Notes under the pieces: generated by a model
What the model saw: only the letters and a program-made list of their open reading frames with translations
Database searches by the model: none
Told to the model about the DNA's origin: nothing
Shown: piece by piece, positions 36,201-53,757 of the stretch
Layout of the letters: each line of letters begins with the position of its first letter
Position numbering within the stretch: the stretch's first letter is position 1
Program-made: the position numbers and the translations under genes
DNA from: an uncultured Clostridia bacterium
Lineage (GTDB): Bacteria; Bacillota; Clostridia; Christensenellales; CAG-138
Assembly (NCBI GenBank): GCA_947168855.1
Contig: CAMVNO010000003.1
Span: 24,574 to 88,573 of the forward strand
DNA: 64,000 nucleotides
Direction: 5' to 3'

Positions 36201-36440
36201 ATGGCATTCAAGGCGTGGCAACTTGCCGCATTGGAAGAATACGGCTATATGGACACCGACGACGGGCTGATCAACCACGTCGCGCGGCGGCTTGCAGAGA
36301 GCCCGAACGATACGATTGACACAGCGGAGTTCCGCTCCGCCTGCATTACCTCCGGCGTGGATCCCGATTTGTTCACTCAAAGCGATCTCGACAAGCTGCA
36401 GCGAAAAATGAATGAGATCGCATATACTAAAACGATATAA
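36201..36440 (+). CDS. Hypothetical small protein
   Basis: 79 aa with backbone-like codon usage. No motif recognised. Confidence 0.45.
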   Translation: MAFKAWQLAALEEYGYMDTDDGLINHVARRLAESPNDTIDTAEFRSACITSGVDPDLFTQSDLDKLQRKMNEIAYTKTI

Positions 36441-36451
36441 AGAAAGTATTG

Positions 36452-36480
36452 TTGTATTAACGATATATCGATGGTATAGT
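36452..36480 (+). promoter_or_regulatory. Candidate promoter of the SNF2...Res operon, with a palindrome in the spacer
   Basis: TTGTAT at 36452-36457, a 17-nt spacer containing the perfect palindrome CGATATATCG (36461-36470), and TATAGT at 36475-36480. Confidence 0.4.
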
Positions 36481-36539
36481 ATCTGTTATACTAGAAAAAA
36501 GATAGCAAAGAACTAAGTTGAATGGTTTAGAGGCGGGGT

Positions 36540-39500
36540 ATGAAGATTCTGAACAACATCAATGATACCGTTCGGGATGATTTGCTGATTACGATCGAAA
36601 AGGGCAGTAAGGTTTCGATTGCTGCTGCCTGCTTTTCCATCTATGCATTTCAAGAGTTAAAGAAGCAGTTGGAAGGCGTCGATCAGCTTCGCTTTATTTT
36701 CACATCACCGACATTCCTCAAAGAAAAAACAGAAAAAGCAAGCCGGGAATTCTACATTCCCCGGCTGAACCGCGAGCGCAATCTGTACGGCACGGATTTC
36801 GAAATCAAGCTCCGCAATGAACTGACGCAGCGCGCCATTGCAAAAGAGTGTGCGGATTGGGTTCGCCGTAAAGCAGTGTTCAAATCCAACGTCACGCAGG
36901 AAAACATGATGGGCTTTATGAATGTAAATGAGTCCACATATATGCCCATCACAGAATTCACGACGGTTGGAATCGGTTGCGAGCGCGGCAATAACGCCTA
37001 CAATCCGGTTACGAGAATGGAGTCGTACGAGAATGGACGCTACTTCCTGAACCTGTTTGATGAACTGTGGCGAGACAACAAGAAACTGCAGGATGTCACA
37101 GATATCGTGATCGAAAATATCACTGCTGCATATAAGGAGAATTCGCCGGATTTCATCTATTTCTTCATGCTGTACAACATCTTCAGCGAGTTTCTGGATG
37201 ACATCTCCGAGGACGTGCTTCCCAATGAAGCGACGGGATTCAAAAACAGCAAGATCTGGGCGATGCTGTACAATTTCCAGCGCGATGCCGTCCTTGCGAT
37301 CATCAATAAGTTGGAAAAATACAACGGTTGCATTTTGGCTGATAGCGTCGGTCTCGGCAAAACCTTTACAGCCCTTGCGGTTGTGAAGTATTACGAGAAC
37401 CGCAATAAATCCGTTCTCGTGCTCTGCCCGAAAAAGCTTGCCGAGAACTGGAATACCTACAAGGGTAACTACAAGAACAATCCGATTGCCGAGGACAGAA
37501 TGCGTTATGACGTTCTGTTCCATACGGATTTGTCCCGTGATCGCGGACAGTCCAACGGCATTGATCTGGAGCGCTTGAATTGGGGCAACTATGACTTGGT
37601 TGTCATCGACGAAAGCCACAACTTCCGCAATGGGATCGGCACGCACAGCAACACCACCGAAAACCGGTATCAGCGGCTGATGGAACGCATCGTCAGAGCA
37701 GGTGTGCGGACAAAAGTGTTGATGCTCTCCGCAACGCCCGTCAACAACAAATTCATCGATCTCAAGAACCAGCTTGCACTTGCATACGAAGGCGACGCCT
37801 CCATTATCAACGCGCAGCTTGATACGGACAAGCCGATCGACGAGATCTTCCGCCAAGCACAGACGGCGTTCAATCAATGGAGCAAGCTTGATGCACAGGA
37901 TCGTACAACGGACGCGCTGCTTCGTATGCTCGACTTTGATTTCTTCGAGCTTCTGGACAGCGTAACGATCGCACGTTCCCGTAAGCACATCGAAAAGTAT
38001 TACAACACGGCGGACATTGGACAGTTTCCGGAACGTCTGAAACCGATTTCCAAACACCCGCATCTGACGGATCTGAAGGACACCATCAACTACAACCAAA
38101 TCTATCGGGAGCTGATTTCGCTGCAGCTTACGATCTACACGCCGTCGTTCTTTATCTATGATTCCCGCATGGACAAGTACGGCGATCTGTCCCGTGGAAA
38201 AGGGCTGACGCAGCAAGGCCGAGAGCAGGGCATTCGGCGCTTGATGAGCATTAACCTTCTGAAACGTCTCGAGAGCTCCGTCTATTCGTTCCGTTTGACG
38301 CTCGATCGCATCCGCGCGTTAATCAATGATACGATTAGGATGATTGATTCCTACCAATCCGGGCAGAAGATCCTGGACATGGTGGATTTCTCCGATGCGG
38401 ATGATTTCGACGAGGACGATCAGAACACCGATTTTTTCTCTGTCGGCAGAAAAGTAAAGATTGATCTCGCCGATATGGATTATGTATCCTGGCGAAAGGA
38501 TCTGCAGCACGACGCTGAAACGCTCGAACTGCTGTCGCTGATGGTACAGGACATCACACCTGCGCACGACACCAAGCTGCAGGAGCTGTTCCGCCTGATC
38601 CGAAACAAGCAGCAGAATCCGATCAATCCGGGCAATAAGAAGATCATCATCTTTACGGCGTTCTCCGATACGGCGGATTATCTGTATGCGAACGTCAGCC
38701 GGTTCGTAAAGGATGAATTCGGGCTTGACACGGCAATGATCACCGGCTCCGTGGATGGCAAGACGACGATCCCGAAACTGCGGGCAGATCTGAATACCGT
38801 TCTGACGTGCTTCTCGCCCGTTTCAAAGGGCAAGGATATCCTGCTTCCGAACAATCCGGCGGAGATCGACGTGCTGATCGCCACCGACTGTATTTCCGAG
38901 GGCCAAAACCTGCAGGACTGCGATTACCTGATCAACTATGATATTCATTGGAACCCCGTCCGCATCATTCAGCGGTTCGGGCGAATTGATCGTATTGGCA
39001 GCCACAACAAGGTGATCCAGCTTGTCAACTTCTGGCCGGACATGGATCTGGACGAGTATATCAACCTGAAAGCACGCGTCGAAACGCGTATGAAGATCAC
39101 TGTTATGACGTCCACCGGCGACGACGATCTGATCAACGCCGAGGAGAAGGGTGATCTGGAATACCGCAAGGCGCAGCTCAAACGGCTGATGGAAGAGGTT
39201 GTCGACATCGAGGATATGTCCGGCGGCATTTCCATCATGGATCTCGGACTCAACGAGTTCCGTCTCGATCTGCTTGAGTATATGAAGACGCACGGTGACG
39301 TCATCGAGCATGCGCCGAACGGCTTGCACGCAGTTGTCGGCGCGACGAACGAAGCCCCTGCCGGCGTCGTCTTCGTTCTGAAAAATCGTAATCAAGGCGT
39401 GAACGTGGATCGTAAGAACCGCATCCATCCGTTCTACATGGTGTATATTGCCAACGACGGCGAGATCGTCTGCGACTACCTCGATCCCAAGACGTTGCTC

Positions 39501-39758
39501 GACACCTTCCGTTATTTGTGTAGAGGAAAGAAGGACCCGGATATTGCGCTATGCCATGCCTTCAATAAGGAAACGAACGACGGACGCGACATGAAAGAGG
39601 TATCGCTGCTTCTGAACGATGCGATTAATTCCATCATCGACGTCAAGGAGGAGAGCGACATCGACAGCTTATTCTCCACAGGTGGGACGTCCGCGCTTGT
39701 ATCAAAGATTTCCGGACTGGAAGACTTTGAGCTGATCTGCTTCCTGGTGGTGCGATAA
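36540..39758 (+). CDS. SNF2-family helicase with N-terminal PLD-like (non-catalytic) domain
   Basis: 1072 aa. ADSVGLGKT, VVIDESHNFRN, LMLSATPVNN and QRFGRIDRIGS motifs. Confidence 0.9.
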   Translation: MKILNNINDTVRDDLLITIEKGSKVSIAAACFSIYAFQELKKQLEGVDQLRFIFTSPTFLKEKTEKASREFYIPRLNRERNLYGTDFEIKLRNELTQRAIAKECADWVRRKAVFKSNVTQENMMGFMNVNESTYMPITEFTTVGIGCERGNNAYNPVTRMESYENGRYFLNLFDELWRDNKKLQDVTDIVIENITAAYKENSPDFIYFFMLYNIFSEFLDDISEDVLPNEATGFKNSKIWAMLYNFQRDAVLAIINKLEKYNGCILADSVGLGKTFTALAVVKYYENRNKSVLVLCPKKLAENWNTYKGNYKNNPIAEDRMRYDVLFHTDLSRDRGQSNGIDLERLNWGNYDLVVIDESHNFRNGIGTHSNTTENRYQRLMERIVRAGVRTKVLMLSATPVNNKFIDLKNQLALAYEGDASIINAQLDTDKPIDEIFRQAQTAFNQWSKLDAQDRTTDALLRMLDFDFFELLDSVTIARSRKHIEKYYNTADIGQFPERLKPISKHPHLTDLKDTINYNQIYRELISLQLTIYTPSFFIYDSRMDKYGDLSRGKGLTQQGREQGIRRLMSINLLKRLESSVYSFRLTLDRIRALINDTIRMIDSYQSGQKILDMVDFSDADDFDEDDQNTDFFSVGRKVKIDLADMDYVSWRKDLQHDAETLELLSLMVQDITPAHDTKLQELFRLIRNKQQNPINPGNKKIIIFTAFSDTADYLYANVSRFVKDEFGLDTAMITGSVDGKTTIPKLRADLNTVLTCFSPVSKGKDILLPNNPAEIDVLIATDCISEGQNLQDCDYLINYDIHWNPVRIIQRFGRIDRIGSHNKVIQLVNFWPDMDLDEYINLKARVETRMKITVMTSTGDDDLINAEEKGDLEYRKAQLKRLMEEVVDIEDMSGGISIMDLGLNEFRLDLLEYMKTHGDVIEHAPNGLHAVVGATNEAPAGVVFVLKNRNQGVNVDRKNRIHPFYMVYIANDGEIVCDYLDPKTLLDTFRYLCRGKKDPDIALCHAFNKETNDGRDMKEVSLLLNDAINSIIDVKEESDIDSLFSTGGTSALVSKISGLEDFELICFLVVR

Positions 39759-39768
39759 AGGAGAAAGA

Positions 39769-40419
39769 ATGCTGAATCTGCCTGCCGCAACTGAGTTTAA
39801 TAAACGAATACCGAAACAAAAGTTTTATGAGAATCTTCCGATTTCTCCGACGATGAAACGGGTTTTTGTCGAACAGATTCGTACGATCATCTGGCGCAAC
39901 AAGATCGCGGCGACGACGATGAATCTTGCGGAAGGCGACGCCGTCAAGGAGCTGGAAGTCTTTGAGATTCAGCTCAACAGCCCGGCGCTGGATGAATTGG
40001 TTTTGAAGCAGATGGATCAGGTGATCCCGTATCACATCCTGTTCCTGCTGTCATACGAGGGAAAGGTGCAGGCGTGGATCGGCTACAAGGAAGCGGCGCA
40101 ATCCGGCACCAACGCCTTCAAGGTGAGCGGATATTACCATACGGATTGGCTGCCGGAAACGGACATGCAGCTTCGCATCGAAGGGCTGTCCACCGACGCT
40201 GTCTATGAAAACCTCGTCCGGCAGATCGCGGGGACAGAACTGCAGATGCAAACAGGCGATACCCTGCAGGCGACGGTGGAACGCACCAAACAGCGTGCCG
40301 ATCTGGAAAAGAAAATCGCCGCGCTGGAAGCAAAGATCCGCAAGGAAAAGCAACTGAACCGCCAGATGGAACTGAACGCGGAAGTGAAGAGATTGAGGAA
40401 GGAGATAGAAATACTGTAA
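39769..40419 (+). CDS. DUF4391-family protein
   Basis: 216 aa. The N-terminus EFNKRIPKQKFYENL and the YHILFLL core match the DUF4391 pattern by recollection. Has a coiled-coil tail. Confidence 0.7.
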   Translation: MLNLPAATEFNKRIPKQKFYENLPISPTMKRVFVEQIRTIIWRNKIAATTMNLAEGDAVKELEVFEIQLNSPALDELVLKQMDQVIPYHILFLLSYEGKVQAWIGYKEAAQSGTNAFKVSGYYHTDWLPETDMQLRIEGLSTDAVYENLVRQIAGTELQMQTGDTLQATVERTKQRADLEKKIAALEAKIRKEKQLNRQMELNAEVKRLRKEIEIL

Positions 40420-41276
40420 TGGCAAGGAAAACAATATTTGAATTATACCAGCAGAATAATGACAGGGAGAGGGACTATGCCCGTATTGTTTCGCTTGTGA
40501 GATCTGACAAGTGCGTTGTGAAGCGCAGTGATTCAAACACAGGATGGCCTCTCAAACATATGTTTGAAGTCGGTTTTAGAGAATGGAAACAGCGAGGACG
40601 ATGCATTAGTCTGGAAGACTATTTGCAAACGATCGATTTTGAATCAATAAAGATATGCGCAGGTGCGTTTACAGATAATTTTTTAACCTATATTGAAGTC
40701 ATCTATAACGCTTGGTTCTTTGTTGATAAAGAGATTAAAGATCATTGGACAGTTATACAATGGGGCGTAGACGGGAAAGAGCTTCGAAGACTGATGGACG
40801 AAGTCCTGTCCGAGATGAATCAAAAAGCATATTATGATCCGGAAACGGAACAATGCTTGATCGGAGAGGATTCACCGCAGGTAACGACGGCAGTTGAAGC
40901 AACAGAACCGGAAACGGCATCGCAGATTCTTCACTATAATCATAGGCAGCTTGCAGGGGAGATTGCCAAGAAAAAGTCTATTTTACAAATTCTTGCAAAA
41001 TACCTTGAAGGGCGAGAATCAGAACTAAAGTCGATCAATATGCAGCTGTTTACAGACTTAAATACTGCCTTCAATAATCTTGATATTCGGCACAACAATA
41101 TAGTGCAGCGTGATTCTTCTGATTATAAAGAAAAACTTGCACAGATGACACCGGAGGAATTGGAGAAATGGTATGACGATGTGTATCAGCTAATTCTTTT
41201 GGCGATTCTGGAGATGGACAACGTAGAAAGAAGGAAACGTTTGAGAACCTTAATACAGGACATTAATCAGAAATGA
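40419..41276 (+). CDS. Uncharacterised protein (cassette 1, gene A)
   Basis: 285 aa, AT-rich. The start overlaps the DUF4391 stop (TAATG). No TM segment or recognised catalytic motif. Confidence 0.7.
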   Translation: MARKTIFELYQQNNDRERDYARIVSLVRSDKCVVKRSDSNTGWPLKHMFEVGFREWKQRGRCISLEDYLQTIDFESIKICAGAFTDNFLTYIEVIYNAWFFVDKEIKDHWTVIQWGVDGKELRRLMDEVLSEMNQKAYYDPETEQCLIGEDSPQVTTAVEATEPETASQILHYNHRQLAGEIAKKKSILQILAKYLEGRESELKSINMQLFTDLNTAFNNLDIRHNNIVQRDSSDYKEKLAQMTPEELEKWYDDVYQLILLAILEMDNVERRKRLRTLIQDINQK

Positions 41277-41293
41277 GGTAAGGGGTAAAGCAA

Positions 41294-42409
41294 ATGATTC
41301 AAGAATACTTGTTCGTTTCCGATGAGAAAATAGAAGATATCAAGAAGTACAATGTCAAAGATGTAAAAAAGACATGTGTTCAAATTAAGAATACAAATAG
41401 TTGGATTGTGACATTTTCGATCAAAAGCGATAGCATGGAAAGCGCTAAAGTCTTGTCGAATGCAAATGATTATATTGTAAAAACTTATAAGCCAACAGTA
41501 TTGATGAATGGCAGCGCTGCATATTTCACGAAGAGGCTTTATCCTCTTGCAGCGGATTTTGAACGTTCATTAAGAAAGCTTTTATACCTGAAAACTGTTA
41601 TAAGCAAGAGCAAAGCTGCTGAAAAATACATTCAGAATTTGGAAGAGAAGAATTTGGACGACATTAAAGCAATTCTTTTCTATGATAAAGGGTTTTATGA
41701 GAATGTGCACAAAGTTATAAATCAAAAAAAGGTATTCAGAAAAGATGAAATCCTTTCTGCGATAAATAATTTTGATGAAAAAACAGTATGGCAAGCTTTA
41801 TTCCCGGATAATCCTCCAAAACACTTGAAAGAACAATTCTCTACGATTATGCTGTATCGAAATGATATTATGCATTCACATAATATCAATCTTGCGGAAT
41901 ATGAAAGCATAAAGACTTTGTTTGAACAAATAAACGAAGAAATATCAACCGCAATAAATAATCTGTTAGAGCAGGAGCTTGATAATGAGAACGCGATAGA
42001 ATTTGATCAGTCTTTAGGACAAGCAATAGAAGCGCAAACAGAGGAAGCGCTCTACAAGCAGAATTACTACGCACTGTTGACAGGTTATCTTAATAGTTCT
42101 GCTATTGAATCTGCAAGGCAAATCGCGGCAAAGATCGATTTTAGTGCTTTGGCAAAGTATCAAGAACAAACCCAGGAGATGGTTGCCCGGATGGATTTTA
42201 GCAAACTTTCCGAATTAGAACAGCAGGCACTCGGAACAATCGCAAAGTTTAATTCGCCAGAGTTTCAGAAAACTATAGATCAGGCAGCCAAGGCTTTGGC
42301 GAGATTATCAATGACGAATTATGACAAGGCTACTCAGAAAGAAGAGAAAGACAAAGATGGCGAGAAGAAGCCAACATCGGATGATGAAGACAAGGGGGAT
42401 AAAGAGTAA
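41294..42409 (+). CDS. Uncharacterised protein with HEPN-like RNxxxH motif (cassette 1, gene B)
   Basis: 371 aa, AT-rich. MLYRNDIMHSHNI fits the HEPN Rx4-6H (RNxxxH) signature. C-terminal half is coiled-coil/low-complexity with a K/D/E tail. The stop overlaps the Mod start (TAATG). Confidence 0.7.
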   Translation: MIQEYLFVSDEKIEDIKKYNVKDVKKTCVQIKNTNSWIVTFSIKSDSMESAKVLSNANDYIVKTYKPTVLMNGSAAYFTKRLYPLAADFERSLRKLLYLKTVISKSKAAEKYIQNLEEKNLDDIKAILFYDKGFYENVHKVINQKKVFRKDEILSAINNFDEKTVWQALFPDNPPKHLKEQFSTIMLYRNDIMHSHNINLAEYESIKTLFEQINEEISTAINNLLEQELDNENAIEFDQSLGQAIEAQTEEALYKQNYYALLTGYLNSSAIESARQIAAKIDFSALAKYQEQTQEMVARMDFSKLSELEQQALGTIAKFNSPEFQKTIDQAAKALARLSMTNYDKATQKEEKDKDGEKKPTSDDEDKGDKE

Positions 42410-44376
42410 TGGAACGAATGAAGTTTGAGACGCCGGATATGGTGGCGGGGAATGTGGAGAAGATCGCGGCTCTGTTTCCGAACTGCGTTACCGAGGCGGT
42501 GGACGAGGAGAAAAGCACCCCGGAGAAGACGGTTTATAAGAAAGCGATCAACTTTGAACTGCTGCGGCAGATGCTGAGTCGTGACGTCATCGAGGGAGAT
42601 GAAGCATACGAATTCACATGGGTGGGCAAGAAGGCGGCGATCGTGGAAGCCAACGCGCCGATCCGTGCCACGCTGCGCCCGTGCCCGGAGGAGAGCGTCA
42701 ACTGGGACACCACCGAAAACCTCTATATCGAAGGCGACAATCTGCAGGTGCTGAAACTCTTGCAGGAGAGCTATCTCGGCAAAGTCAAAATGATCTATAT
42801 CGATCCGCCGTATAACACTGGGCACGATTTTGTCTATCCAGATTCTTTCATTATGGATAACAAAGAGTACAATGAAGGCACAGGATATTATAATGACGAT
42901 GGAGATGTAAATTTTAATCGAGAAAACAATGTGACTGCAGCGCGGTATCATTCTGACTGGTGTTCCATGCTTTATTCACGTCTACTATTATCCAGAAACT
43001 TACTATCAGATGAAGGTATTCTTTTCCTTTCAATAGACGAGAATGAAGTCACAAATGCTAAAAGGATCTGCGAAGAAGTGTTCGGGGCAGCCAATTGTCT
43101 GGGCGTTATTAGCAATACAAACAATCCGAAAGGGCGTTCTGATGATAATTATATTGCAACGGCACATGAATATATACTTGTTTATGCCAATCAAGAAGCA
43201 AAAGCAAAGTGGTTCGGCTTTGAACCGACGGAAGAAATAATTAAGAGATACAACAAAATTGATATAAACGGAAGAAAATATAGAGAGATCGACTTACGAA
43301 AAACTGGCGAGAATGATTTGAGAGAAGATAGGCCTAACCTGTTTTACTATTTTGCGTATAATCAAGAGACAGGGGACTTTTATCCGTGTAAAGAAGCAAT
43401 TGCTCCCAATGGATACTTTTTGATAAAGCCACAAAGAGAGGATGGCCGCGAAGGAAACTGGAGATGGGGGATAGAAACTGCGAGAGCACAGATCAATGAA
43501 TTGATTCCCAAATATATGCCTACAAGGAAAGTATGGGGCATTATGGAGAAAGACTACCTTGAAGACAGAGATTTTGTGAAGCCGACAAGTTCGTGGACAT
43601 TCAAAGATGTTAATAGTGAAAGAGGGACAGAGGAGTTCATCGATTTGGGATTTGATAAACGTGTTTTTCCAAAACCTAAACCTTTAGGAACGATTGAACG
43701 TTGTATTAAATTGTCTTCTCGGAGCAATAGCGATATTATAATGGACTTCTTTAGCGGTAGTGCGACAACAGCCCATGCGGTTTATAAAATGAATGCTTAT
43801 GATGGCGCTAAAAGACAGTTCATTATGGTTCAGTTGCCTGAGCCGTGTAAGGACAATTCGGTTCCATATTCAAAAGGTTTCAAAACCATCTGCGACATCG
43901 GCAAAGAGCGTATCCGCCGCGCAGGAAAGAAGATTCAGGAGGAGAATCCGCTGACGACGCAGGATTTGGATATCGGGTTTCGCGTACTGAAGCTCGATTC
44001 CACGAACATGAAGGACGTCTATTATTCGCCTGCGGAGATCAGTCAAAACCTGTTGACGGCTTTGGAATCCAACATCAAGGAGGATCGAACCGATCTCGAT
44101 CTGCTGTTCGGCTGCCTGATCGACTGGGGCCTGCCGCTGTCGCTGCCGTACAAGAGTGAAACGATCGACGGCTGCACCGTGCATACCTACAACGACGGCG
44201 ATCTGATCGCCTGCTTCAACGAAAATATCTCGGACAGCGTGATCCAGAAGATCGCCCGCCGCAAGCCTCTGCGCGCCGTCTTCCGCGACGCGAGCTTTGC
44301 TGACAGTCCCTCGAAGATCAACGTCTTCGAGATCTTCAAGCTCCTCGCCCCCGACGCGAGCGTCAAGGTGATATAA
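42409..44376 (+). CDS. mod: Type III-like DNA methyltransferase (Mod; beta-class N6A/N4C)
   Basis: 655 aa. Motif IV IYIDPPYNTG lies before motif I DFFSGSATTAHA, with a long variable central region between them. Confidence 0.88.
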   Translation: MERMKFETPDMVAGNVEKIAALFPNCVTEAVDEEKSTPEKTVYKKAINFELLRQMLSRDVIEGDEAYEFTWVGKKAAIVEANAPIRATLRPCPEESVNWDTTENLYIEGDNLQVLKLLQESYLGKVKMIYIDPPYNTGHDFVYPDSFIMDNKEYNEGTGYYNDDGDVNFNRENNVTAARYHSDWCSMLYSRLLLSRNLLSDEGILFLSIDENEVTNAKRICEEVFGAANCLGVISNTNNPKGRSDDNYIATAHEYILVYANQEAKAKWFGFEPTEEIIKRYNKIDINGRKYREIDLRKTGENDLREDRPNLFYYFAYNQETGDFYPCKEAIAPNGYFLIKPQREDGREGNWRWGIETARAQINELIPKYMPTRKVWGIMEKDYLEDRDFVKPTSSWTFKDVNSERGTEEFIDLGFDKRVFPKPKPLGTIERCIKLSSRSNSDIIMDFFSGSATTAHAVYKMNAYDGAKRQFIMVQLPEPCKDNSVPYSKGFKTICDIGKERIRRAGKKIQEENPLTTQDLDIGFRVLKLDSTNMKDVYYSPAEISQNLLTALESNIKEDRTDLDLLFGCLIDWGLPLSLPYKSETIDGCTVHTYNDGDLIACFNENISDSVIQKIARRKPLRAVFRDASFADSPSKINVFEIFKLLAPDASVKVI

Positions 44377-44388
44377 AGGAGATTCTTC

Positions 44389-45225
44389 ATGAGCAGATTC
44401 TTTTACAGAATACCACGAACTCTACGTAACAGTATTACTTTAGCATTGGCTATTATCACAGTGGCAAGCACTATCACGGGGATCATTGGCTTTTCTATTA
44501 GAGACGTTGACTCCAAACTGACATGGTGGGGCAGCCTTCTAATACTCCTCGGCTTGTATATACTTTTAGTTACAGTCATTTACATCGTATTAAAAGTAGT
44601 ACAAAAACGGCCAATTCGGTTTTCGATTAACGGTAATCAGGGAGAGATACGGAAAGGAAATATCTTTTCAACGGATGGAATGAAGGTGATTCCGTTTAAT
44701 GAGTTCTACGATACGAAGGTAGATGATGTAATAATATCAAAGAAATCATTAAATGGGGTGTTCATTTCCGGATATGTTAAGGATATCGAACATCTGAAGG
44801 AACGAATTATTGATGCAGAAAATGAGCCAAGCAGTTTGAAAAGTGAAGACATAAATGGTAGGAAGAGATATCCGCTTGGCAGAATAATACCGTATGATGA
44901 GTATCTGCTGCTTGCATTTTCACACTTTAACGCGAACAATGAAGCTCATATTGATATAGCGGATTACGAAAGATGTCTATTTCAAATGTGGAGAGAGATT
45001 CGTAGAACGTATTCAGGAAAGGACGTAGTTCTTCCGTTAATAGGTTCTGGCATAACAACGTTTGATGGAATATTGAAAAAGGACAATAACGATCTGCTGA
45101 AATGCATTTTATGCACGTTAAGGGCAAGCGGCGTTCAGCTTAACAGTAAAATAACAATTATTCTTACAGATGAGGTTTTTAATTCAATCAATCAAGACAG
45201 TATCAGAGAGGAGTTAAAACAATGA
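44389..45225 (+). CDS. 2-TM protein with C-terminal macro-like domain (Thoeris type II ThsA-like effector)
   Basis: 278 aa. Two N-terminal TM helices (ITLALAIITVASTITGIIGFSI; WWGSLLILLGLYILLVTVIYIVL). The C-terminal domain has a macro-like VVLPLIGSGITTF loop. Confidence 0.55.
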   Translation: MSRFFYRIPRTLRNSITLALAIITVASTITGIIGFSIRDVDSKLTWWGSLLILLGLYILLVTVIYIVLKVVQKRPIRFSINGNQGEIRKGNIFSTDGMKVIPFNEFYDTKVDDVIISKKSLNGVFISGYVKDIEHLKERIIDAENEPSSLKSEDINGRKRYPLGRIIPYDEYLLLAFSHFNANNEAHIDIADYERCLFQMWREIRRTYSGKDVVLPLIGSGITTFDGILKKDNNDLLKCILCTLRASGVQLNSKITIILTDEVFNSINQDSIREELKQ

Positions 45226-45734
45226 CATATTATAGAACTAGAACATATATTGCAGCAGATTGGACAGGCGATTATGATGCGGTTGAACAGCTGCGGAAAT
45301 GGAATGATAGCAATTATTGGAGCCTGAGTTTTACGGATGCCCATGATCTTAAGCAAGCGCGCGATGGCAGCTTGAATTGTACTATAAAAAATTCGTTGCG
45401 CGACAGATTAAACGCATCGAAAACGTTTGTTTTGATCGTTGGTGATCAAACAAAAAACTTGCGGAGTGGTAGCTGTGTCTACTGCCCTAACTATAATAAT
45501 TATTCGTGTGATAACCGTAATATCGTTGATTTTAGGAGTTACATTGAATTTGAGTGTGATAAGGCTATAAGTGATGGTTTGAAGATAGTTGTCCTTTATA
45601 ACTCAACTCGTGTAGATAAAACAAAATGCCCGGAGGTTATTCAGAAGTATGGGATTCATGCCGCAATGAAAGAGTACAAATATGGTCTTGTATACTGGAA
45701 TTATGCGGCTGTTAGAGATGCAATCATGGATTGA
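45222..45734 (+). CDS. TIR-like (DUF1863/ThsB-like) protein
   Basis: 170 aa. The blocks TYIAADW..., SKTFVLIVGDQT and IEFECDKAISDGLKIVVLYN line up with my recollection of Bacillus cereus ThsB. ATGA overlap with the upstream gene. Confidence 0.6.
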   Translation: MTYYRTRTYIAADWTGDYDAVEQLRKWNDSNYWSLSFTDAHDLKQARDGSLNCTIKNSLRDRLNASKTFVLIVGDQTKNLRSGSCVYCPNYNNYSCDNRNIVDFRSYIEFECDKAISDGLKIVVLYNSTRVDKTKCPEVIQKYGIHAAMKEYKYGLVYWNYAAVRDAIMD

Positions 45735-45802
45735 TTTAAATAGGACAATGCAACTGCTGATGCAGTTAACCTTACATGGTTCCAGTGCTGAGGAGAATTA
45801 TC

Positions 45803-46564
45803 ATGGAGAAAAGTAGCGATACCGCGCTTTATAAGTACATGCCTTATAAGTTCTTTTCCAAAATGTTGGAGGAGAGCGCGCTGACGCTTGTCGATCCTTT
45901 TCAATGCTGGGAAGATACATATGAAGGCGCTTTTTACCGTGCCATAAAAGATGAAGAAACTTTCAATTATCTTGTTTCAATTACCCGACATAAGACTGAA
46001 AGCGAGAGCGTAATCGCATCTTTTAGGCGCTTGCTATTAACTGTCAGCAGCGTTAAAGCGCAGAGCTGGACTAAAAACCGGGATGATCTCTTAATGTGGG
46101 CTGCGTACTCGAATAATAAAAGGTCTATTATGGTTCAAACGAGTATAGATAAATTGAATACCGTTTGCAAGGATAATTATCCCGCGAGCATTGATGCACT
46201 CTCTCTGCCATGGATACATGACGTTGTTTATGATTATGATAGAGAGTCTTCCATACAGTCAGATATAATACGAGCTTTCGATGCTATCGCTTTGTCAATG
46301 AATCCATATGAGCCTTTCTTACATAAGCGTACCGAACTTTCATTCGAACAGGAAGTAAGATTACTCGCTGCAGATTCAAATCAATCTAATAGAAAGACAG
46401 CAAAACTAAGGATTAATGATATCAAGGCATTCATTGATGGGGTGATGGTTCACCCTGGAGCAACAAAGCAATTTGCAGGGAAAGTCTGTAACGAATGTGA
46501 GAAATACGGGATTACATATCTTGGGAAATCACAAAAGTACGATGTTTCTTTTTTAACGGTGTAA
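45803..46564 (+). CDS. DUF2971-family protein
   Basis: LYKYMPYKFF..., LMWAAYSNNKRSIMV and FEQEVRLL motifs. ATG 45803 follows gaggag. Confidence 0.65.
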   Translation: MEKSSDTALYKYMPYKFFSKMLEESALTLVDPFQCWEDTYEGAFYRAIKDEETFNYLVSITRHKTESESVIASFRRLLLTVSSVKAQSWTKNRDDLLMWAAYSNNKRSIMVQTSIDKLNTVCKDNYPASIDALSLPWIHDVVYDYDRESSIQSDIIRAFDAIALSMNPYEPFLHKRTELSFEQEVRLLAADSNQSNRKTAKLRINDIKAFIDGVMVHPGATKQFAGKVCNECEKYGITYLGKSQKYDVSFLTV

Positions 46565-46578
46565 CCGGAGGGACAGGA

Positions 46579-49500
46579 ATGAAACTTCAATTCAAACATC
46601 AAAAATTCCAGGCGGATGCGGCGAAGGCGGTTGTGGACGTCTTTGCAGGGCAGCCGTATCTGACGCAATCGTATCTGATGGATCGCGGCAGAGGGTATCA
46701 GCGGTTGGATGAGGACGAGCGATTTACCGGTTGGCGCAATGAGCGGATCGTGCCGGAGCTGACGGATTCCATGATTCTGGATCACATTCGCAAGATCCAG
46801 CGTGTGAATCAGATCGAGCCGTCCGATCGGTTGGAGGGGCGCTATAACCTGACGATTGAGATGGAAACCGGCGTCGGCAAAACGTATACCTATATCAAGA
46901 CGATGTACGAGCTGAACAAGCAATACGGCTGGAGCAAGTTCATCGTCGTCGTGCCGAGCATTGCGATCCGCGAGGGCGTCTATAAGTCGTTCCAGATCAC
47001 GCAGGAGCATTTTGCTGAGGAATACGGGAAGAAGATCCGGTTCTTCATCTATAACTCCGCGCAGCTCACGGAGATCGATCGGTTTGCTTCTGACAATGCG
47101 ATCAACGTCATGATCATCAATTCGCAGGCGTTCAATGCGAAGGGAAAAGATGCGCGGCGCATCTATATGAAGCTCGACGAGTTCCGCAGCCGTCGCCCGA
47201 TCGACATCATTGCCAAGACGAATCCGATCCTGATCATCGACGAACCGCAGTCCGTGGAAGGCGCGGCGACAAAGGAGCGGTTGAAGGAGTTTTGCCCGCT
47301 GTTCACCCTGCGCTATTCCGCGACGCATAAGTCGGACAGTATCTATAACATGATCTATCGGCTCGATGCGATGGAGGCGTACAATAAGCGGCTGGTAAAG
47401 AAGATCGCCGTGAAGGGCATTACTGAAACGGGATCGACGGCGACGGAGGGCTATGTATACCTGCAGAGCATCAATCTGTCGAAAGCCGATCCGACGGCGA
47501 CGCTGCAGTTTGACGTCAAAGGCGCATCAGGCGTGCGTAAAAAGACGCAGATCGTCAAGATCGGAACGAATCTCTATGATCTGTCCGGCGGGCTGGAGGA
47601 GTATAAGAACAATTTCACCGTCAGCTTTATCGATGGGCGTGACGATTCCGTTTCCTTCCTGAACGGCGTGAAAATCTACGCTGGCGACGTCATCGGCAGC
47701 GTCAGCGAGGAGCAGATGCGCCGGATCCAGATCCGTGAAACGATCCTTTCGCATATTGATCGGGAACGGCAGTTGTTCCACCGGGGGATCAAGGTGCTGT
47801 CGCTGTTCTTCATCGACGAGGTTGCGCATTACAAGCAGTACGACGCCGCAGGGCAGCCGTACAACGGCATCTATGCCGATATGTTCGAGGAAGAATATGA
47901 CGATGTCATGCATTCGCTGCAGATCGCTGCAGGCGAGGAGGATTATGTCATATACCTGCAGTCGATCAAAGCAAAGGATACGCACGCCGGGTACTTCTCG
48001 ATCGACAAGAAGGGACACATGACGGACAGTAAGATCGGAGACAAGAAGGAAAAGACATCGGACGATATCGACGCTTACGATCTGATCATGAAGAATAAGG
48101 AACTGTTGCTGGACCGGGATCCGAAGAAATCGCCGGTACGGTTTATCTTTTCGCACTCGGCGCTGCGCGAGGGCTGGGACAATCCAAATGTATTCCAGAT
48201 CTGCACACTAAAGCAGAGCAGCAGTGAGGTGCGCAAGCGTCAGGAAGTCGGACGTGGACTGCGTCTGTGCGTCAATCAGGACGGCGAGCGCCAGGACATC
48301 AATGTGCTTGGCAACGATGTGCAGAACGTCAACGTGCTGACGGTTATCGCATCCGAAAGCTATGAGAGCTTCGCAAGAGAACTGCAGACAGAGCTTGCAG
48401 AGGCGGTTGCGAATCGCCCGCGTGCCGTTACGCCGGAGCTGTTTACAAATCGTGTAATCACCGATGCAAACGGTAATTCGGAGGTGATCACGCAGAACAC
48501 TGCTTTGGAGATCTGGATGAACCTGCGTATGGATGGGTACATCGACAGGGACAATGCTCTGACGGACAAGTTCTATACCGATCGTGCAAATGGGAGCGTG
48601 CATGTTATCGAGGAGGTTGCCGCTTACGGCGATTCGATCATACAGATCCTTGATTCCGTCTACAATGCCGCGGCGATGCAGCCGGAGAATGCCCGCAGCA
48701 ACAACGTGGAGCTTTCCGTCAATCGTGACAAGCTGGAGATGGCGGAGTTCAAGGCGCTCTGGAAGCGCATCAACAAGAAATCGTATTATGTCGTTGACTT
48801 CGACACGGACGAGCTGGTGCGTAATTCCGTACAGGCATTGAACACTAAACTGCGGATTCCGAAGATCTTCTTCCGCGTGACGATGGGGACGATGGATTCA
48901 ATTTCGTCGAGGGAATCACTGCAGGCAGGGGAGGCGTTTACAAAGACGTCCTCTTCCGTGCATGACGAGCATACCAGGATCGCTGCTAACCGCAGCGTGA
49001 AGTACGATCTGATTGGAAAGCTCGTGGACGCAACAGGGCTCACGAGAAAGGCGATCGTCGAGATCTTAACCGGCATCGAGAAGGATGTCTTTGATCAGTT
49101 CGCCAATAATCCGGAGGAGTTCATTCTGAAGGCGGCGGAGCTGATCAACGATCAGAAAGCGACGGCGATCATTCAGCACATCACTTACGATTTGCTGGAC
49201 GAAGAGTACAAGACGGATATCTTCACGGACGCCACGATCAAGGGCAAACTCGGCGTCAATGCGATCCGAGCGAACAAGCATTTGTATGATCATGTCGTCT
49301 ATGATTCGACGGTAGAAAAGAAACTGGCGCAGAATCTGGAGGCCAGCACAGATGTCGCTGTATATGTGAAGCTGCCGAACGGATTCTACATCTCCACGCC
49401 GGTAGGCAAGTACAATCCGGACTGGGCGATCGCGTTCTACGAGGATCACGTCAAGCACATCTACTTTGTAGCGGAGACGAAGGGCGATCTGGCATCGCTT

Positions 49501-49638
49501 GAACTGACGCATACGTCCTCGCTGGAGAAAGCAAAGATTGACTGTGCACGTCAGCACTTCAAGGCGATCAGCAACGGCGAAGTGGTTTACGACGTCATCG
49601 ACGGATATGACGCATTGTTGCAAAAGGTGATGCGGTAA
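46579..49638 (+). CDS. res: Type III restriction enzyme Res subunit (COG3587-like helicase-nuclease)
   Basis: 1019 aa. METGVGKTYTY, ILIIDEPQ, LREGWDNPNVF and a C-terminal PD-(D/E)xK (NPDWAI...VAETKG). Confidence 0.9.
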   Translation: MKLQFKHQKFQADAAKAVVDVFAGQPYLTQSYLMDRGRGYQRLDEDERFTGWRNERIVPELTDSMILDHIRKIQRVNQIEPSDRLEGRYNLTIEMETGVGKTYTYIKTMYELNKQYGWSKFIVVVPSIAIREGVYKSFQITQEHFAEEYGKKIRFFIYNSAQLTEIDRFASDNAINVMIINSQAFNAKGKDARRIYMKLDEFRSRRPIDIIAKTNPILIIDEPQSVEGAATKERLKEFCPLFTLRYSATHKSDSIYNMIYRLDAMEAYNKRLVKKIAVKGITETGSTATEGYVYLQSINLSKADPTATLQFDVKGASGVRKKTQIVKIGTNLYDLSGGLEEYKNNFTVSFIDGRDDSVSFLNGVKIYAGDVIGSVSEEQMRRIQIRETILSHIDRERQLFHRGIKVLSLFFIDEVAHYKQYDAAGQPYNGIYADMFEEEYDDVMHSLQIAAGEEDYVIYLQSIKAKDTHAGYFSIDKKGHMTDSKIGDKKEKTSDDIDAYDLIMKNKELLLDRDPKKSPVRFIFSHSALREGWDNPNVFQICTLKQSSSEVRKRQEVGRGLRLCVNQDGERQDINVLGNDVQNVNVLTVIASESYESFARELQTELAEAVANRPRAVTPELFTNRVITDANGNSEVITQNTALEIWMNLRMDGYIDRDNALTDKFYTDRANGSVHVIEEVAAYGDSIIQILDSVYNAAAMQPENARSNNVELSVNRDKLEMAEFKALWKRINKKSYYVVDFDTDELVRNSVQALNTKLRIPKIFFRVTMGTMDSISSRESLQAGEAFTKTSSSVHDEHTRIAANRSVKYDLIGKLVDATGLTRKAIVEILTGIEKDVFDQFANNPEEFILKAAELINDQKATAIIQHITYDLLDEEYKTDIFTDATIKGKLGVNAIRANKHLYDHVVYDSTVEKKLAQNLEASTDVAVYVKLPNGFYISTPVGKYNPDWAIAFYEDHVKHIYFVAETKGDLASLELTHTSSLEKAKIDCARQHFKAISNGEVVYDVIDGYDALLQKVMR

Positions 49639-49662
49639 ACATATTCAAAAGGTGTAAGATAT

Positions 49663-49695
49663 ATAAGCAATGTGCAAAATATGCACGTTGCTTAT
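49663..49695 (+). terminator. Hairpin downstream of res
   Basis: ataagcaatgtgca / aaata / tgcacgttgcttat, a 14-bp stem with one G-T pair. No strong T-run follows. Confidence 0.4.
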
Positions 49696-49814
49696 TCGCA
49701 TATACCTGTTAAGTATGATACTACTAGTGCCAGAATGCACATACTGACACGGGCACCAACTATTGCAGATTCTACAACAGTTCAAACAAAACGCAGCCGC
49801 AGAAAGAAAAGGTT

Positions 49815-50116
49815 GGATTTATCTAAATAATTAAAATCTTGCGTTAATTAGTAAAATCGGCATTGAAATTAGACAAATCTGATGAAAAGTACTCAAATCA
49901 TTATCTGAATTAGTGAAATTTAGGCAAATCGTTGCCTAAATTAGTTAAATCTGATGAAAATTACTCAAATCACCGCCTGATTTAGATAAATCTTATGGCA
50001 TTTAAGCAAATCATTTGCCTAAATTAGTGAAATTTGATTAAATTACGCAAATCATTTGCCTAAATTAGGCAAATACTTATCTAAATTAGTCAAATTCTTT
50101 TGAAATTAGACAAGAC
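49815..50116. repeat. Phased iteron-like array: about 14 copies of A(A/T)TTAGNNAAAT(C/T) at 19-22 bp spacing
   Basis: The hexamer aattag or a variant starts at 49846, 49867, 49887, 49908, 49918, 49939, 49959, 49980, 50000, 50022, 50041, 50063, 50084 and 50104. Embedded short palindromes include atttgcct-aaatt-aggcaaat. Confidence 0.85.
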
Positions 50117-50150
50117 GGATGGAGCTCCGATGGCTCATCCGTCTTTTGTT
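50112..50150 (+). terminator. Hairpin with T-run closing the iteron region
   Basis: aagacggatggagc / tccgatg / gctcatccgtctt, followed by ttgtttcgg. Confidence 0.6.
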
Positions 50151-50290
50151 TCGGTCAAATGTACGCGAAGATCGCGGAACGTATCTTCTATCGGTGCAAC
50201 GCGGCCGGCGGTGACATCGGCTTCACTTTCTGCAAGAACTTGGAGCAATTCCAGCTCGGATTGATTTTGCTTTTTCATTGGTTTGTCTTT

Positions 50291-51844
50291 TCAATTCTTA
50301 TTCTTCCGGTTCGGGAAGGAAGATTCGAGCCACGCTTCGTATTCCTCGACCGTGATCTTGCCGTCGGCGCATTCGTCACGTTTTGTGAGCGCCTGATACT
50401 TCCATTTCTTGAAATCGGCTTCCTTAATCTGCCGCACCTTTACACGCGCAGAGTAGCGCTTATAGTATTTGCTGTATAGCGCGTATTCCTTGTTTTCCGC
50501 TGCCTTCGCTCTATAGTTCTCGATTGCTGCAAGTTCCTGACAGGTGCGCGTACTGCCCTCTGCAATCCGATCACAGTAGTTTGTGTCGTAATTGCCTTTC
50601 ATAATGAAATACCTGCCACAACGCTTGCATTTGCGGAAGTGGATGTTTTCTTCCAGCATCTTCGTGAACTCCAATTCCAGCATCTCCGCCGCGGTGGAGA
50701 CATCGTATTGAATGCTCATAAAGGACGGACGGCGGATCATCATGGTAAGGTGTCCAACGTCCAATCCGTATTCTTCTGCAAATGCTTTTTCCGCTTCGGT
50801 TTCGTTTGAGGAAAACGCCTTGATGATTCTCTTGATGTATTCCTCCTGTTCCATTCCGAACGGCATACGCCTCGGGCTGCCCATGTGTTCGTGCGAGATC
50901 ATCAATTCTTCGCGACGAGTATAAGAATCGGACAGATCGTGTATATCCCGATACAAATGGTATCGTTCGCTCGGATAGAGGTTTCCGAGTACTTCGGGAT
51001 GGAAATTTTCATCATAAACGAATTCAAGAAGCTCCTGGTATTCCTTTTGCAGCGTTACCAGATAATCCGCATAGCGTCCCATCATCCTATCTGTATCTGC
51101 GTCGTATCCAACAAAACACGGCGGGAACAGCGCGGAGTAGAGGGAAGCATACAGCGCGTCGCCGAGATCGTCGCAAGTAGAGCAGAACTGAAAGTAATGC
51201 TCTACGATCTCCTGCGTCCGGTTATAAACCTTTTCCGGTTTTTCTTCCTCGATAGGTTCTGCCCCCGGAAGGTCAACATCATCCTTTTCTCTGATTCTGC
51301 GGAACAAACGATAGATAGCGTATCTTTCCTTCATCGGTGTAATGAGATCGGAATACACGAAATCCAAGATTCCTTCGCCATATCGAATGGTCACACACGT
51401 TCCGCTGAGCACATCGTTCATTGGCTGACGGATCGGCTCCTCGGCATCGTAATCAATGTTCCCGTTTTCATCTGTCGGATAGTCGGAAAAATCGGTTGGA
51501 TCGCCATGCGACGATATGCGCTCAATTTCGTATTTCTTTTGTAGCAGGGCATACTGCTCCCGATTCTTTTTTACTCTCTTTGCAGCAAATTCCTTATCTT
51601 CCGGATAATCTTTCAGCTTGACACCACGCCGTTTCTCTTGTTCGTCTTGGTACTCGTCAATAAAGCTGTCCATCGAATAATCTTCATTGAGATCATCGAC
51701 ATAAAAGCGGATCGTTCGCTTTTCTGCATCGAAACGGACCTTGTTATGGAAGTACCCTAAGATAATATCCTTCCGGTGCTCCCGCTTCATACGGTACCGG
51801 TCATACGCTGTTAATTCATATTCGGAGTAGTCTTTTTCTTTCAT
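50291..51844 (-). CDS. Hypothetical protein with C-terminal zinc ribbon (mobile-element accessory)
   Basis: About 517 aa from ATG 51844 (gaggac RBS). The CKRCGRYFIMKG...YCDR...TCQ region parallels the tail of 27449-28348. Confidence 0.7.
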   Translation of the reverse strand: MKEKDYSEYELTAYDRYRMKREHRKDIILGYFHNKVRFDAEKRTIRFYVDDLNEDYSMDSFIDEYQDEQEKRRGVKLKDYPEDKEFAAKRVKKNREQYALLQKKYEIERISSHGDPTDFSDYPTDENGNIDYDAEEPIRQPMNDVLSGTCVTIRYGEGILDFVYSDLITPMKERYAIYRLFRRIREKDDVDLPGAEPIEEEKPEKVYNRTQEIVEHYFQFCSTCDDLGDALYASLYSALFPPCFVGYDADTDRMMGRYADYLVTLQKEYQELLEFVYDENFHPEVLGNLYPSERYHLYRDIHDLSDSYTRREELMISHEHMGSPRRMPFGMEQEEYIKRIIKAFSSNETEAEKAFAEEYGLDVGHLTMMIRRPSFMSIQYDVSTAAEMLELEFTKMLEENIHFRKCKRCGRYFIMKGNYDTNYCDRIAEGSTRTCQELAAIENYRAKAAENKEYALYSKYYKRYSARVKVRQIKEADFKKWKYQALTKRDECADGKITVEEYEAWLESSFPNRKNKN

Positions 51845-52346
51845 AATGTCCTCACTGATTTGGAGAATACGGATCCTCACAATTTTGGAGTATTAACATC
51901 ACCACAAACAACATGATACAAAACTATTGTATAAATGTCAAGAACCCAATATAATTCTGCGTGGGAAATGATGATTGAGAATGATCATCATTTTTTGTTT
52001 TGTAAGCGCTTTGAAAACAGAATAACGAAAGAAAAAACGAACGATTTATGAACAGCTCCATCAGAACTGCAAAAAATGACTGTTTTTTCGCATTGTGTAT
52101 GGGAGGGCTAAAAATGCGACGAAAAAGCGAGTTATTTAAGAAACTGTGAACATTTTGCTTTTTCCTGCAAAAAATCGCTGTTTTTCCGCAATGGGTATGG
52201 AGGGACTGTTTTTGAATGCGCCCGGCAAGAGAGAACGCCGGTGCAGATACACCGTTTCCCCTGATCAAGGAAACGAGACCGTTGCCGCTTCGGGACGCCG
52301 AGGTGATAAGCACACATTACACGGATTACGAAAGGAAACCAAACGT

Positions 52347-52556
52347 ATGAACAAACCATACACAAATACAAACGAGTTGCCCTATACGCTCAGCGTAGAG
52401 GAGATGGCGGCCTTCTTAGGAATTTCCAGAGTCGGCGCTTACAATCTGAGCCACAGCAAGGGGTTCCCGTCGAAGCGGATCGGAAAGCGCATCCTGATCC
52501 CGCGAGATGAATTCCTTGCCTGGCTGAAGGAACTGCCGGAGGTGAGCAATGCATGA
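52347..52556 (+). CDS. xis: Excisionase-family HTH DNA-binding protein
   Basis: 69 aa. LSVEEMAAFLGISRVGAYNL...ILIPRDEFLAWL is the MerR-like Xis pattern. Confidence 0.75.
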   Translation: MNKPYTNTNELPYTLSVEEMAAFLGISRVGAYNLSHSKGFPSKRIGKRILIPRDEFLAWLKELPEVSNA

Positions 52557-53482: not shown

Positions 53483-53716
53483 TCGACCGCAGGGCAGAGC
53501 GGCAATCCTGAAAGGCGGACATGTGCTTGGGCGACCGTGTAACACCGTGTTACACGATGGAATTCCCTAAGGCAGCACAAGGTTTACGGTGCGGGGAGGC
53601 AACTCCCCGCGCCGATCCCGGACACGGAAATGATAGCATTCTTTCCGAAAATGATAGCTTTTTTGAGGTTGAAACCGGGACGGCAGATTTGATCCCGTTA
53701 GGGATTAACAAGCATG

Positions 53717-53757
53717 GGATTGTGGTAGCACAATCCGTCCGTAAGGGAGCGCCCTTA
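53717..53757 (+). promoter_or_regulatory. Candidate oriT (inverted repeat plus nic-like sequence)
   Basis: Inverted repeat ggattgtg/gtag/cacaatcc (53717-53736), followed 4 nt later by GTAAGGGAGCGCCCTTA. This resembles the MOBQ nic region TAAGTGCGCCCT of RSF1010 as I recall it. A further perfect palindrome cgtgtaacac-c-gtgttacacg lies at 53536-53556. Confidence 0.4.

Follow-up and report, generated by a model that had tools for sequence, protein, structure and literature searches.

A predicted type II Thoeris gene pair carried as cargo within a mobile type III restriction-modification operon of an uncultured Clostridia bacterium

The thsA-thsB pair and its encoded proteins

A two-gene module situated between the modification and restriction genes (mod and res) of a type III restriction-modification (RM) operon was analyzed in a 64,000-nucleotide (nt) stretch of DNA from an uncultured Clostridia bacterium (contig CAMVNO010000003.1 of assembly GCA_947168855.1, positions 24,574 to 88,573), referred to below as the window. 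The two open reading frames (ORFs), of 278 and 170 amino acids (aa), are predicted to encode ThsA and ThsB of a type II Thoeris defence system, as a first-pass annotation based on the letters of the DNA had proposed. Both ORFs are present where that annotation had placed them, and the start of thsB and the stop of thsA share the letters ATGA (45222-45225). The 12-nt gap behind mod, read directly from the sequence, is AGGAGATTCTTC. It represents a ribosome-binding site (AGGAG) for thsA and is too short to hold a promoter, in agreement with the earlier observation that none is visible there. The nesting of the pair between mod and res was also correctly described, although a third gene in the same interval had been omitted. 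This gene encodes a DUF2971 protein (Pfam PF11185, 3.7e-5; PADLOC single-gene candidate PDC-S31, 5.7e-26); it stands outside Thoeris proper and is simply co-resident in the interval. The flanking genes are clearly assigned, Mod by PADLOC MTase_III (1.1e-196) and Pfam N6_N4_Mtase, and Res by PADLOC REase_III (2.2e-289) and Pfam ResIII and RE_endonuc. Two opposite-strand ORFs within the pair (44706-44939 and 44927-45127), both short and enclosed by well-supported genes, were taken to be spurious. The coordinates of all features are collected in Table 1.

The solved proteins used for comparison are those of B. amyloliquefaciens Y2 (BaThsA, 8R66), E. coli ATCC 25922 (EcThsA and EcThsB2; 8V6Q, 8V6R, 8V6T) and P. 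corrugata (PcThsA, 8V6S). The 8V6x structures originate from Shi et al. 2024 (PMC11204291), not from "Chemical inhibition of a bacterial immune system". Against Pfam ThsA_Macro (PF20016) the 278-aa protein scores 161.5 (2.4e-47; cut-off 25), and against PADLOC PDLC00413 ThsA it reaches 1.5e-75 over aa 18-275. Sequence matches in the PDB are the solved type II ThsA Macro domains 8V6Q/8V6R, 8V6S, 9UUZ and 8R66, at approximately 1e-32. Two N-terminal transmembrane (TM) helices, as first reported from inspection, are given consistently by hydropathy and by the AlphaFold2 (AF2) model. Kyte-Doolittle means over 19 residues reach 2.09 for TM1 and 3.02 for TM2 and do not exceed 1.07 anywhere after residue 75; the second hydrophobic peak is present in all 35 scanned family members, and the first in most of them. 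In the model, built with 35 homologues and having a mean predicted local distance difference test score (pLDDT) of 83.3, helices at residues 10-33 and 46-72 are followed by an alpha/beta/alpha domain. When this model was compared with the PDB by Foldseek, the top hit was 8v6q_A (E 1e-20, TM score 0.87, root-mean-square deviation (rmsd) 1.9 Å), and the top eight hits were the Macro domains of EcThsA, BaThsA and PcThsA (E 1e-20 to 3e-17, TM scores 0.85-0.87, rmsd 1.9-2.9 Å, 33-35% identity), while generic macro domains appeared only at E ~1e-5. The macro-type loop noted at first reading, VVLPLIGSGITTF (aa 213-225), corresponds in the alignment to the loop that binds the diphosphate in the solved ThsA Macro domains. 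On these profile and model comparisons, the 278-aa protein is predicted to be ThsA with a Macro domain of the ThsA type.

The 170-aa protein was found to match Pfam PF08937 (ThsB_TIR) at 3.1e-10 (score 40.8, cut-off 21.2; aa 14-81) and PADLOC PDLC00427 ThsB at 2.8e-81 (aa 3-168), so that both members of the pair are recognized over their full length by the PADLOC profiles. Its AF2 model (pLDDT 74.5) displays a flavodoxin-like TIR topology with a poorly modelled insertion at aa 74-107. The best PDB matches obtained by Foldseek were 8V6T, which is EcThsB2 (E 2e-7), 3HYN, the ThsB-Tad3 complex (9b7d), a B. cereus TIR protein (8fz9) and the SARM1 TIR domain (6o0q). The three blocks by which the protein had originally been recognized, TYIAADW, SKTFVLIVGDQT and IEFECDKAISDGLKIVVLYN, are all found in the sequence, and the conserved Glu is E111, located in "EFEC". 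Neither the 32 database homologues nor the 57 unique sequences taken from independent loci, with identities as low as 49%, show any substitution of E111, which lies within a predicted alphaC helix (108-117) of the model. Together with Y107, E111 forms a YxxxE version of the WxxxE motif, position 107 being Y or F; in ThsB this motif is essential (Englert et al. 2026, bioRxiv 10.64898/2026.01.22.701046). Y9 is invariant in both sets as well, and "KTYIAADW" aligns with "KTYVAF" of EcThsB2. In EcThsB2 the Tyr is hydrogen-bonded to the catalytic Glu, and it is found only in ThsB of TM-Macro systems (Shi et al. 2024, PMC11204291). Judged by this alignment, Y9 is the predicted active-site Tyr typical of such ThsB proteins.

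The association of the two genes extends well beyond the window. The ThsA alignment was scanned against metagenome contigs, giving 80 loci with 37-87% identity, 76 of which have at least 520 nt downstream. A ThsB relative follows directly on the same strand in 73 of these 76 loci, lies approximately 535 nt away in two, and is missing in one; the co-occurrence of homologues of both proteins is thus established. In locus L084 (1968-9345), a pair with 48% identity is located directly after DndB-C-D-E and an HNH gene, the last of which it overlaps. This is a further promoterless placement of a ThsAB cassette, beside a DNA-modification system.

Table 1. Coordinates of the gene pair, the restriction operon and the surrounding element in the window
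Feature	Position	Strand	Description
serine recombinase	33015-34508		mobile-element gene
AAA_14/DUF4143 ATPase	34874-36160		mobile-element gene
HKD/Snf2 helicase	36540-39758	+	backbone gene; PADLOC C3a139 HKD+Snf2, 6.5e-123
DUF4391	39769-40419	+	backbone gene; Pfam DUF4391, 1.1e-60
cargo slot 1 (DUF4391-Mod)	40419..42409	+	two low-GC genes, 285 aa and 371 aa
mod	42409..44376	+	type III RM methyltransferase; upstream flank of the Mod-Res slot; stop TAA
Mod-ThsA spacer	44377..44388	+	12 nt
thsA	44389..45225	+	278 aa; predicted type II Thoeris effector, two TM helices and Macro domain
N-terminal membrane hairpin of ThsA	44431..44598	+	TM1 ~aa 15-37, TM2 ~aa 46-70
ThsA Macro (signal-binding) domain	44614..45210	+	aa 76-274; GSGIT diphosphate loop aa 219-223
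thsB	45222..45734	+	170 aa; predicted TIR-like signal synthase/sensor
ThsB E111 codon	45552..45554	+	predicted catalytic Glu; S106-Y107-x3-E111, then C112
DUF2971 gene (PADLOC candidate PDC-S31)	45776..46564	+	262 aa; third cargo gene in the Mod-Res slot, between ThsB and Res
res	46579..49638	+	type III RM helicase-nuclease; downstream flank of the slot
ParB	52553-53482		mobile-element gene
MobA/VirD2 relaxase	54113-55486		mobile-element gene
tyrosine integrase	56001-57191		mobile-element gene

Ligand pocket of ThsA and cysteine insertion of ThsB

In characterized systems, the ligand binds in the cleft of the ThsA Macro domain, upon which higher-order oligomers form and the TM helices are clustered (Shi et al. 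2024, PMC11204291). For BaThsA the signal is histidine-ADP-ribose (His-ADPR), the histidine moiety of which is held mainly by main-chain atoms (Sabonis et al. 2024, bioRxiv 10.1101/2024.01.03.573942). The presence of an ADP-ribose (ADPR) pocket, which had been proposed as a check on the first assignment, was analyzed by mapping the published contacts onto the window ThsA by alignment with verified numbering offsets, and 35 family members were compared. It can be observed that the core of the cleft is present. L121 corresponds to EcThsA L113, which stacks on the adenine in the reference structure; N122 (EcThsA N114, BaThsA N133) and S178 (EcThsA S175, BaThsA S194) are the distal-ribose contacts, S220 (EcThsA S217) is the proximal-ribose contact, and G221 and T223 (EcThsA G218 and T220) contact the diphosphate. 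D108, the counterpart of EcThsA D100, which stabilizes the alpha3-beta4 loop, is also kept.

Several contacts to the base moiety are changed. The histidine carboxylate is bound by Arg in BaThsA (R240), and the residue is Arg in EcThsA (R221) and PcThsA too; it is T224 here and Thr or Ser in 28 of the 35 family members. The adenine-stacking residue, BaThsA Y277 or EcThsA H259, is replaced by T260, with Thr in 30 of 35 members. The residue that contacts adenine N6, EcThsA D83 or BaThsA D100, is N91 (Asp in 24 and Asn in 11 members), the water-mediated adenine contact BaThsA Q135 is V124, and the proximal-ribose contact EcThsA K262 is V263. Accordingly, the side chains specific to His-ADPR (BaThsA R240, Y277 and D100) are absent from the window ThsA. 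This loss is compatible with membership in type II Thoeris, which is defined by architecture. From the residues aligned, ThsA is predicted to be a receptor of the ADPR type, for a ligand that may differ from His-ADPR in its base moiety.

The ThsB subfamily carries a distinctive feature of its own. C53, C85, C88, C96, C112 and C136, together with H41 and H146, are invariant in the same 57 unique sequences. Three of the six cysteines lie inside the insertion at aa 74-107, and C112 directly follows E111. EcThsB2 is without both the insertion and these cysteines, and a cysteine cluster in such ThsB proteins is unmentioned by Shi et al. 2024 (PMC11204291). The pattern of conservation suggests that the invariant Cys and His residues form a candidate metal or redox site.

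These differences bear on an alternative to the signal step, in which the architecture is that of type II while the subfamily signals with an ADPR conjugate other than His-ADPR and thereby constitutes a distinct signal class. The replacement of the carboxylate-binding Arg and of the adenine-stacking residue across most of the subfamily speaks for it, as do the ThsB insertion with its invariant Cys, missing in EcThsB2, and the different ADPR-derived signals of other Thoeris types (bioRxiv 10.64898/2025.12.03.692087). Since BaThsA grips histidine mostly through its main chain, the loss of a single side-chain contact need not alter specificity; moreover, the ribose and diphosphate core is conserved, and ThsB retains the Tyr/Glu active site typical of TM-Macro systems. 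On balance, a distinct signal class is considered rather unlikely, though well worth bearing in mind, and it would leave the type II assignment otherwise unaffected.

The restriction operon, its two cargo slots and exact breakpoints

A scan of genome contigs with Res gave 447 relatives, the best 80 of which (71-77% identical) were compared. They derive from Oscillospiraceae, Lachnospiraceae, Treponema, Fibrobacter, Veillonella, Campylobacter, Prevotella, Eggerthellaceae and others. The order Snf2-DUF4391-Mod-Res, determined by tblastn, is conserved among relatives, and where 6 kb or more of sequence precedes Mod (43 related loci), both Snf2 and DUF4391 are present in 35. As in a classical type III RM system (Mod and Res), mod precedes res in one operon and the MTase_III and REase_III profiles are matched, and the relatives with an empty slot have a mod-res spacer of 13-22 nt like that of a classical bicistronic operon. 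The differences are the HKD/Snf2 and DUF4391 genes that precede mod, and, in the window, three unrelated genes between mod and res. In the literature searched, no mention of DUF4391 as a defence component was found, the mentions being unrelated.

Two positions of this backbone receive additional genes. Slot 2, between Mod and Res, was measured in 73 loci, of which 35 are empty (13-22 nt) and 34 hold more than 500 nt (up to 3.8 kb). Slot 1, between DUF4391 and Mod, was measured in 52 loci; 12 are empty, and 35 have an insert longer than 500 nt. The cargo ORFs, 86 in 37 clusters, all run in the direction of the operon (+ strand). The families represented include YhcG/PDC-S02 (23 copies), HEPN and a single-gene TIR (PDC-S66), the further PADLOC candidates PDC-S32, S05/RhuM, S23, S45, S46, M10 and M13, and Tmn/YobI, an AriAB-like ATPase, Schlafen/AlbA_2, KAP NTPase, an HNH nuclease and a trypsin-like protease. 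No Thoeris relative was detected by tblastn in any of the best 80 Res-related loci. The base composition of the window follows the same division. GC content is 51-56% in Snf2, DUF4391, both ends of Mod and Res, and 36-40% in ThsA, ThsB, DUF2971, both slot-1 genes (0.40 and 0.36) and the middle of Mod, which reads 0.53, 0.39 and 0.56 for its N-terminal, middle and C-terminal parts.

Several cargo clusters have no Pfam or PADLOC match, and such families are candidate new defence genes by guilt-by-embedding. The 285-aa and 371-aa proteins of slot 1 in the window show no significant Pfam or PADLOC family; the 371-aa protein, for which a PDB sequence search also gave no match, contains an Rx4H motif ("YRNDIMHSH"), and relatives of it occupy slot 1 in two other loci (L010 and L015). 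A protein of approximately 600 aa recurs in slot 1 elsewhere (L014 3579-5408, L036 3652-5433, L064 6257-8074), again with no Pfam or PADLOC match, and several additional cargo clusters of approximately 100-320 aa likewise lack one. In two loci (L029 and L059), slot 1 holds a second Mod-like gene.

Comparison of near-isogenic backbones locates the junctions to the nucleotide. In the window, slot 2 carries ThsA-ThsB-DUF2971. In L086-L089, where Res belongs to the same 90%-identity cluster, it carries two unknown genes, HEPN and a RES-domain gene; in L091, of the same cluster, an unknown gene and HEPN. L081, L082 and L092, with ThsA 87% identical to that of the window, carry ThsA-ThsB only, with ThsB abutting Res. 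The DNA of Res is 86-91% identical to that of L081, L086 and L091, beginning exactly at the ATG. Against L086, DNA homology extends as far as the Mod stop codon (44376) and is picked up again from the Res ATG (46580). Relative to L081, it continues through ThsA-ThsB to 45735 and resumes at 46579; homology is broken over 45736-46578, and DUF2971 is therefore a precise 843-bp addition. Empty slot-2 sites read stop-GGAGG-spacer-ATG(Res), and occupied slots have spacers of 12-41 nt or overlapping codons at their junctions. An integron-like cassette or a site-specific insertion was ruled out, no flanking direct or inverted repeats of note and no att- or attC-like elements being found at the slot junctions. 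Because the junctions are devoid of such sites, the simplest account of cargo exchange is probably homologous recombination, with the 3' end of mod and the 5' end of res serving as the conserved flanks. Mod itself is homologous to L086, L081 and L091 only over 42408-42860 and 43882-44376 (87-93% identical). Its low-GC middle (~42861-43880) is non-homologous among these backbones and presumably represents a swapped target-recognition domain, which suggests a different methylation and restriction specificity. L086-L089 additionally possess two tandem DUF4391 genes (268 and 216 aa; 2406-3891), and their slot 2 (7600-10000) has four genes, ending with the RES-domain protein.

Whether the pair is still functional can be weighed at this point. 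Decay of ThsAB into an inactive remnant carried by the restriction operon would fit the rapid turnover of cargo at the slot and the replacement of the adenine-binding Asp by N91. As this Asn is common to 11 of the 35 family members, it reflects variation within the family, not damage. Each ORF is intact and of full length relative to the PADLOC profiles, every family-invariant residue is present, including E111, Y9 and the GSGIT loop, and the copy in L081, with 85.5% identical DNA, keeps both ORFs and the ATGA overlap. A remnant is thus highly improbable, and an intact pair is the preferred reading.

The same comparisons bear on whether the position of the pair is mechanistically required, that is, whether ThsAB is functionally integrated with the type III restriction enzyme, sensing its failure or inhibition or acting on Mod or Res. 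The tight packing of the pair against mod and res, where it lacks a separate promoter, would agree with such a role, and the nested arrangement is repeated in L081, L082 and L092; embedding may also permit co-regulation or complementary defence (Payne et al. 2024, bioRxiv 10.1101/2024.01.29.577857). Yet these nested copies represent one close clade (ThsA at least 87% identical), consistent with a single acquisition. Among the 80 metagenome ThsA loci, the Res of this backbone adjoins ThsA in one and no relative of that Res lies beside the other 79. One example of the pair, in L084, is placed beside Dnd genes. Furthermore, Res backbones of the same cluster hold unrelated cargo in slot 2, nearly half of the relatives measured have this slot empty, and the base composition of the cargo is foreign to the backbone. 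Functional integration is accordingly judged very unlikely, and ThsAB is better regarded as exchangeable cargo. The placement had been called unusual at first reading. This holds for this Thoeris family, in which location next to this Res is rare, but not for the backbone, about half of whose relatives carry cargo in the slot.

The scans for expression signals were made with promoter and terminator consensus patterns, which provide weak evidence in either direction: promoter-like matches numbered 27 against a shuffled expectation of 20.2 +/- 4.3, not above background, and the only + strand terminator-like site within 39500-50500 was found at 50129, past Res. The one + strand terminator-like match further upstream, barely within the Snf2 gene (36603-36626), is no more than chance would give (3 found, 3.9 expected). 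No Rfam family reached its gathering score within 36000-50500. A promoter or terminator belonging to ThsAB itself was rejected, as the scans did not rise over the shuffled background and the + strand between 39500 and the end of Res is free of terminator-like sites. The most economical explanation would be read-through from the operon, with translation of thsB coupled to that of thsA.

Assignment, proposed mechanism and the surrounding element

Taken as a whole, thsA-thsB is predicted to be a complete two-gene type II Thoeris system, with a probability of about 0.93. Every architectural and catalytic feature by which the first-pass assignment could be checked was found, and no observation overturned it. 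The likeness to the characterized systems comprises two genes, a ThsA with two TM helices and a Macro domain, a single-domain TIR-like ThsB, the Macro fold, the distal-ribose and diphosphate contacts, and the ThsB Glu and Tyr. The differences comprise an identity of just ~35% to the solved type II ThsA proteins, Thr in place of both the His-carboxylate Arg and the adenine-stacking Tyr/His, and the subfamily insertion of ~30 residues with six invariant Cys near the catalytic Glu. The window has one thsB, in the order thsA then thsB; E. coli ATCC 25922 has two. Several points weigh against the assignment or its context. By sequence, ThsB aligns with the solved ThsB proteins over aa 4-82 only. 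Its Foldseek TM scores are just 0.53-0.57, a consequence of the low confidence at which the cysteine-rich insertion (aa 74-107) is modelled. The altered base-contacting residues T224, T260, V263 and N91 of the aligned pocket mean that the signal may be other than His-ADPR. Co-transcription with mod is deduced from spacing and consensus scans, and an internal promoter may lie in the 3' end of mod.

ThsAB is best regarded as cargo lacking a promoter of its own, housed in the Mod-Res slot of a type III RM operon that is itself mobile, and its nesting there is explained by the slot being a recombination hotspot of that operon. In the proposed mechanism, the pair would be expressed by operon read-through, thsA from its own AGGAG ribosome-binding site and thsB through coupling at the ATGA. 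By analogy with characterized homologues, infection would lead ThsB, through Tyr9 and Glu111, to turn NAD+ into an ADPR conjugate. As in the work on EcThsA and BaThsA, this signal would occupy the Macro cleft and cause oligomerization of the Macro domains, clustering of the TM helices and membrane damage. The probable outcome would be abortive infection or an arrest of growth; activated ThsA in characterized systems damages the membrane or stops growth (Shi et al. 2024, PMC11204291; Englert et al. 2026, bioRxiv 10.64898/2026.01.22.701046). Restriction would constitute a first layer of defence and Thoeris a second, independent one, their co-location arising from cargo exchange in the hotspot with no joint mechanism.

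The embedding of defence genes within multi-gene defence systems has been described as "guilt-by-embedding" by Payne, Hughes, Fineran and Jackson (Payne et al. 2024, bioRxiv 10.1101/2024.01.29.577857). The hosts surveyed there were Hma, BREX, DISARM and type I RM, and 96.7% of the genes embedded in them shared the orientation of the host; a type III RM host is named in neither the methods nor the results, and Thoeris is absent from the main text. Common to both are the co-oriented nesting between genes of a host operon, the occurrence of known systems as cargo, and a shared cargo pool (PDC-S02, S05, S23, S31, S32, S45, S46, S66, M10 and M13). Here, by contrast, Snf2 and DUF4391 genes accompany type III RM in the host operon, and the slots are nucleotide-defined, from stop to start codon, with two slots and a swappable Mod middle. 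The type of host and the two-slot anatomy are a modest extension of the embedded-gene pattern, the principle of which was already known.

ThsAB by itself adds little, since standard tools would call it thoeris_II and the mechanism is under study in model systems. The locus is a nucleotide-resolved case of a signalling (abortive-infection) system within a restriction operon on a mobilizable element. A broader proposal is advanced tentatively, as possible though short of probable, in two parts: that the Snf2-DUF4391-Mod-Res operon, which ranges from Clostridia to Spirochaetes, Veillonella, Campylobacter and Bacteroidota, is a widespread horizontally mobile carrier of defence cassettes, and that the ThsAB subfamily relies either on a signal different from His-ADPR or on a TIR gated by metal or redox state. 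If the operon is indeed such a carrier, its slots are a new hunting ground for undiscovered defence genes. With near-isogenic relatives bearing other cargo or none, the backbone family represents a natural experiment, which bears on cassette exchange, on layered protection by restriction and abortive infection, and on the roles of unannotated cargo. The differences in pocket and cysteines, for their part, mark a Thoeris II subfamily of interest for signal identity.

The restriction module sits on an integrative mobilizable element, the parts of which span 33015-36160 and 50291-57191 (Table 1). The succession ParB, relaxase, integrase behind Res is repeated in L086 and L090, with 64-85% DNA identity (~75% over ParB and relaxase). 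A DUF6076 protein on the minus strand is also part of the element. Just past the integrase lie the gene of a TPR/DUF6273 protein (57648-59615) and, behind it, a second DUF2971 gene (59632-60402); the two may represent another candidate defence pair.

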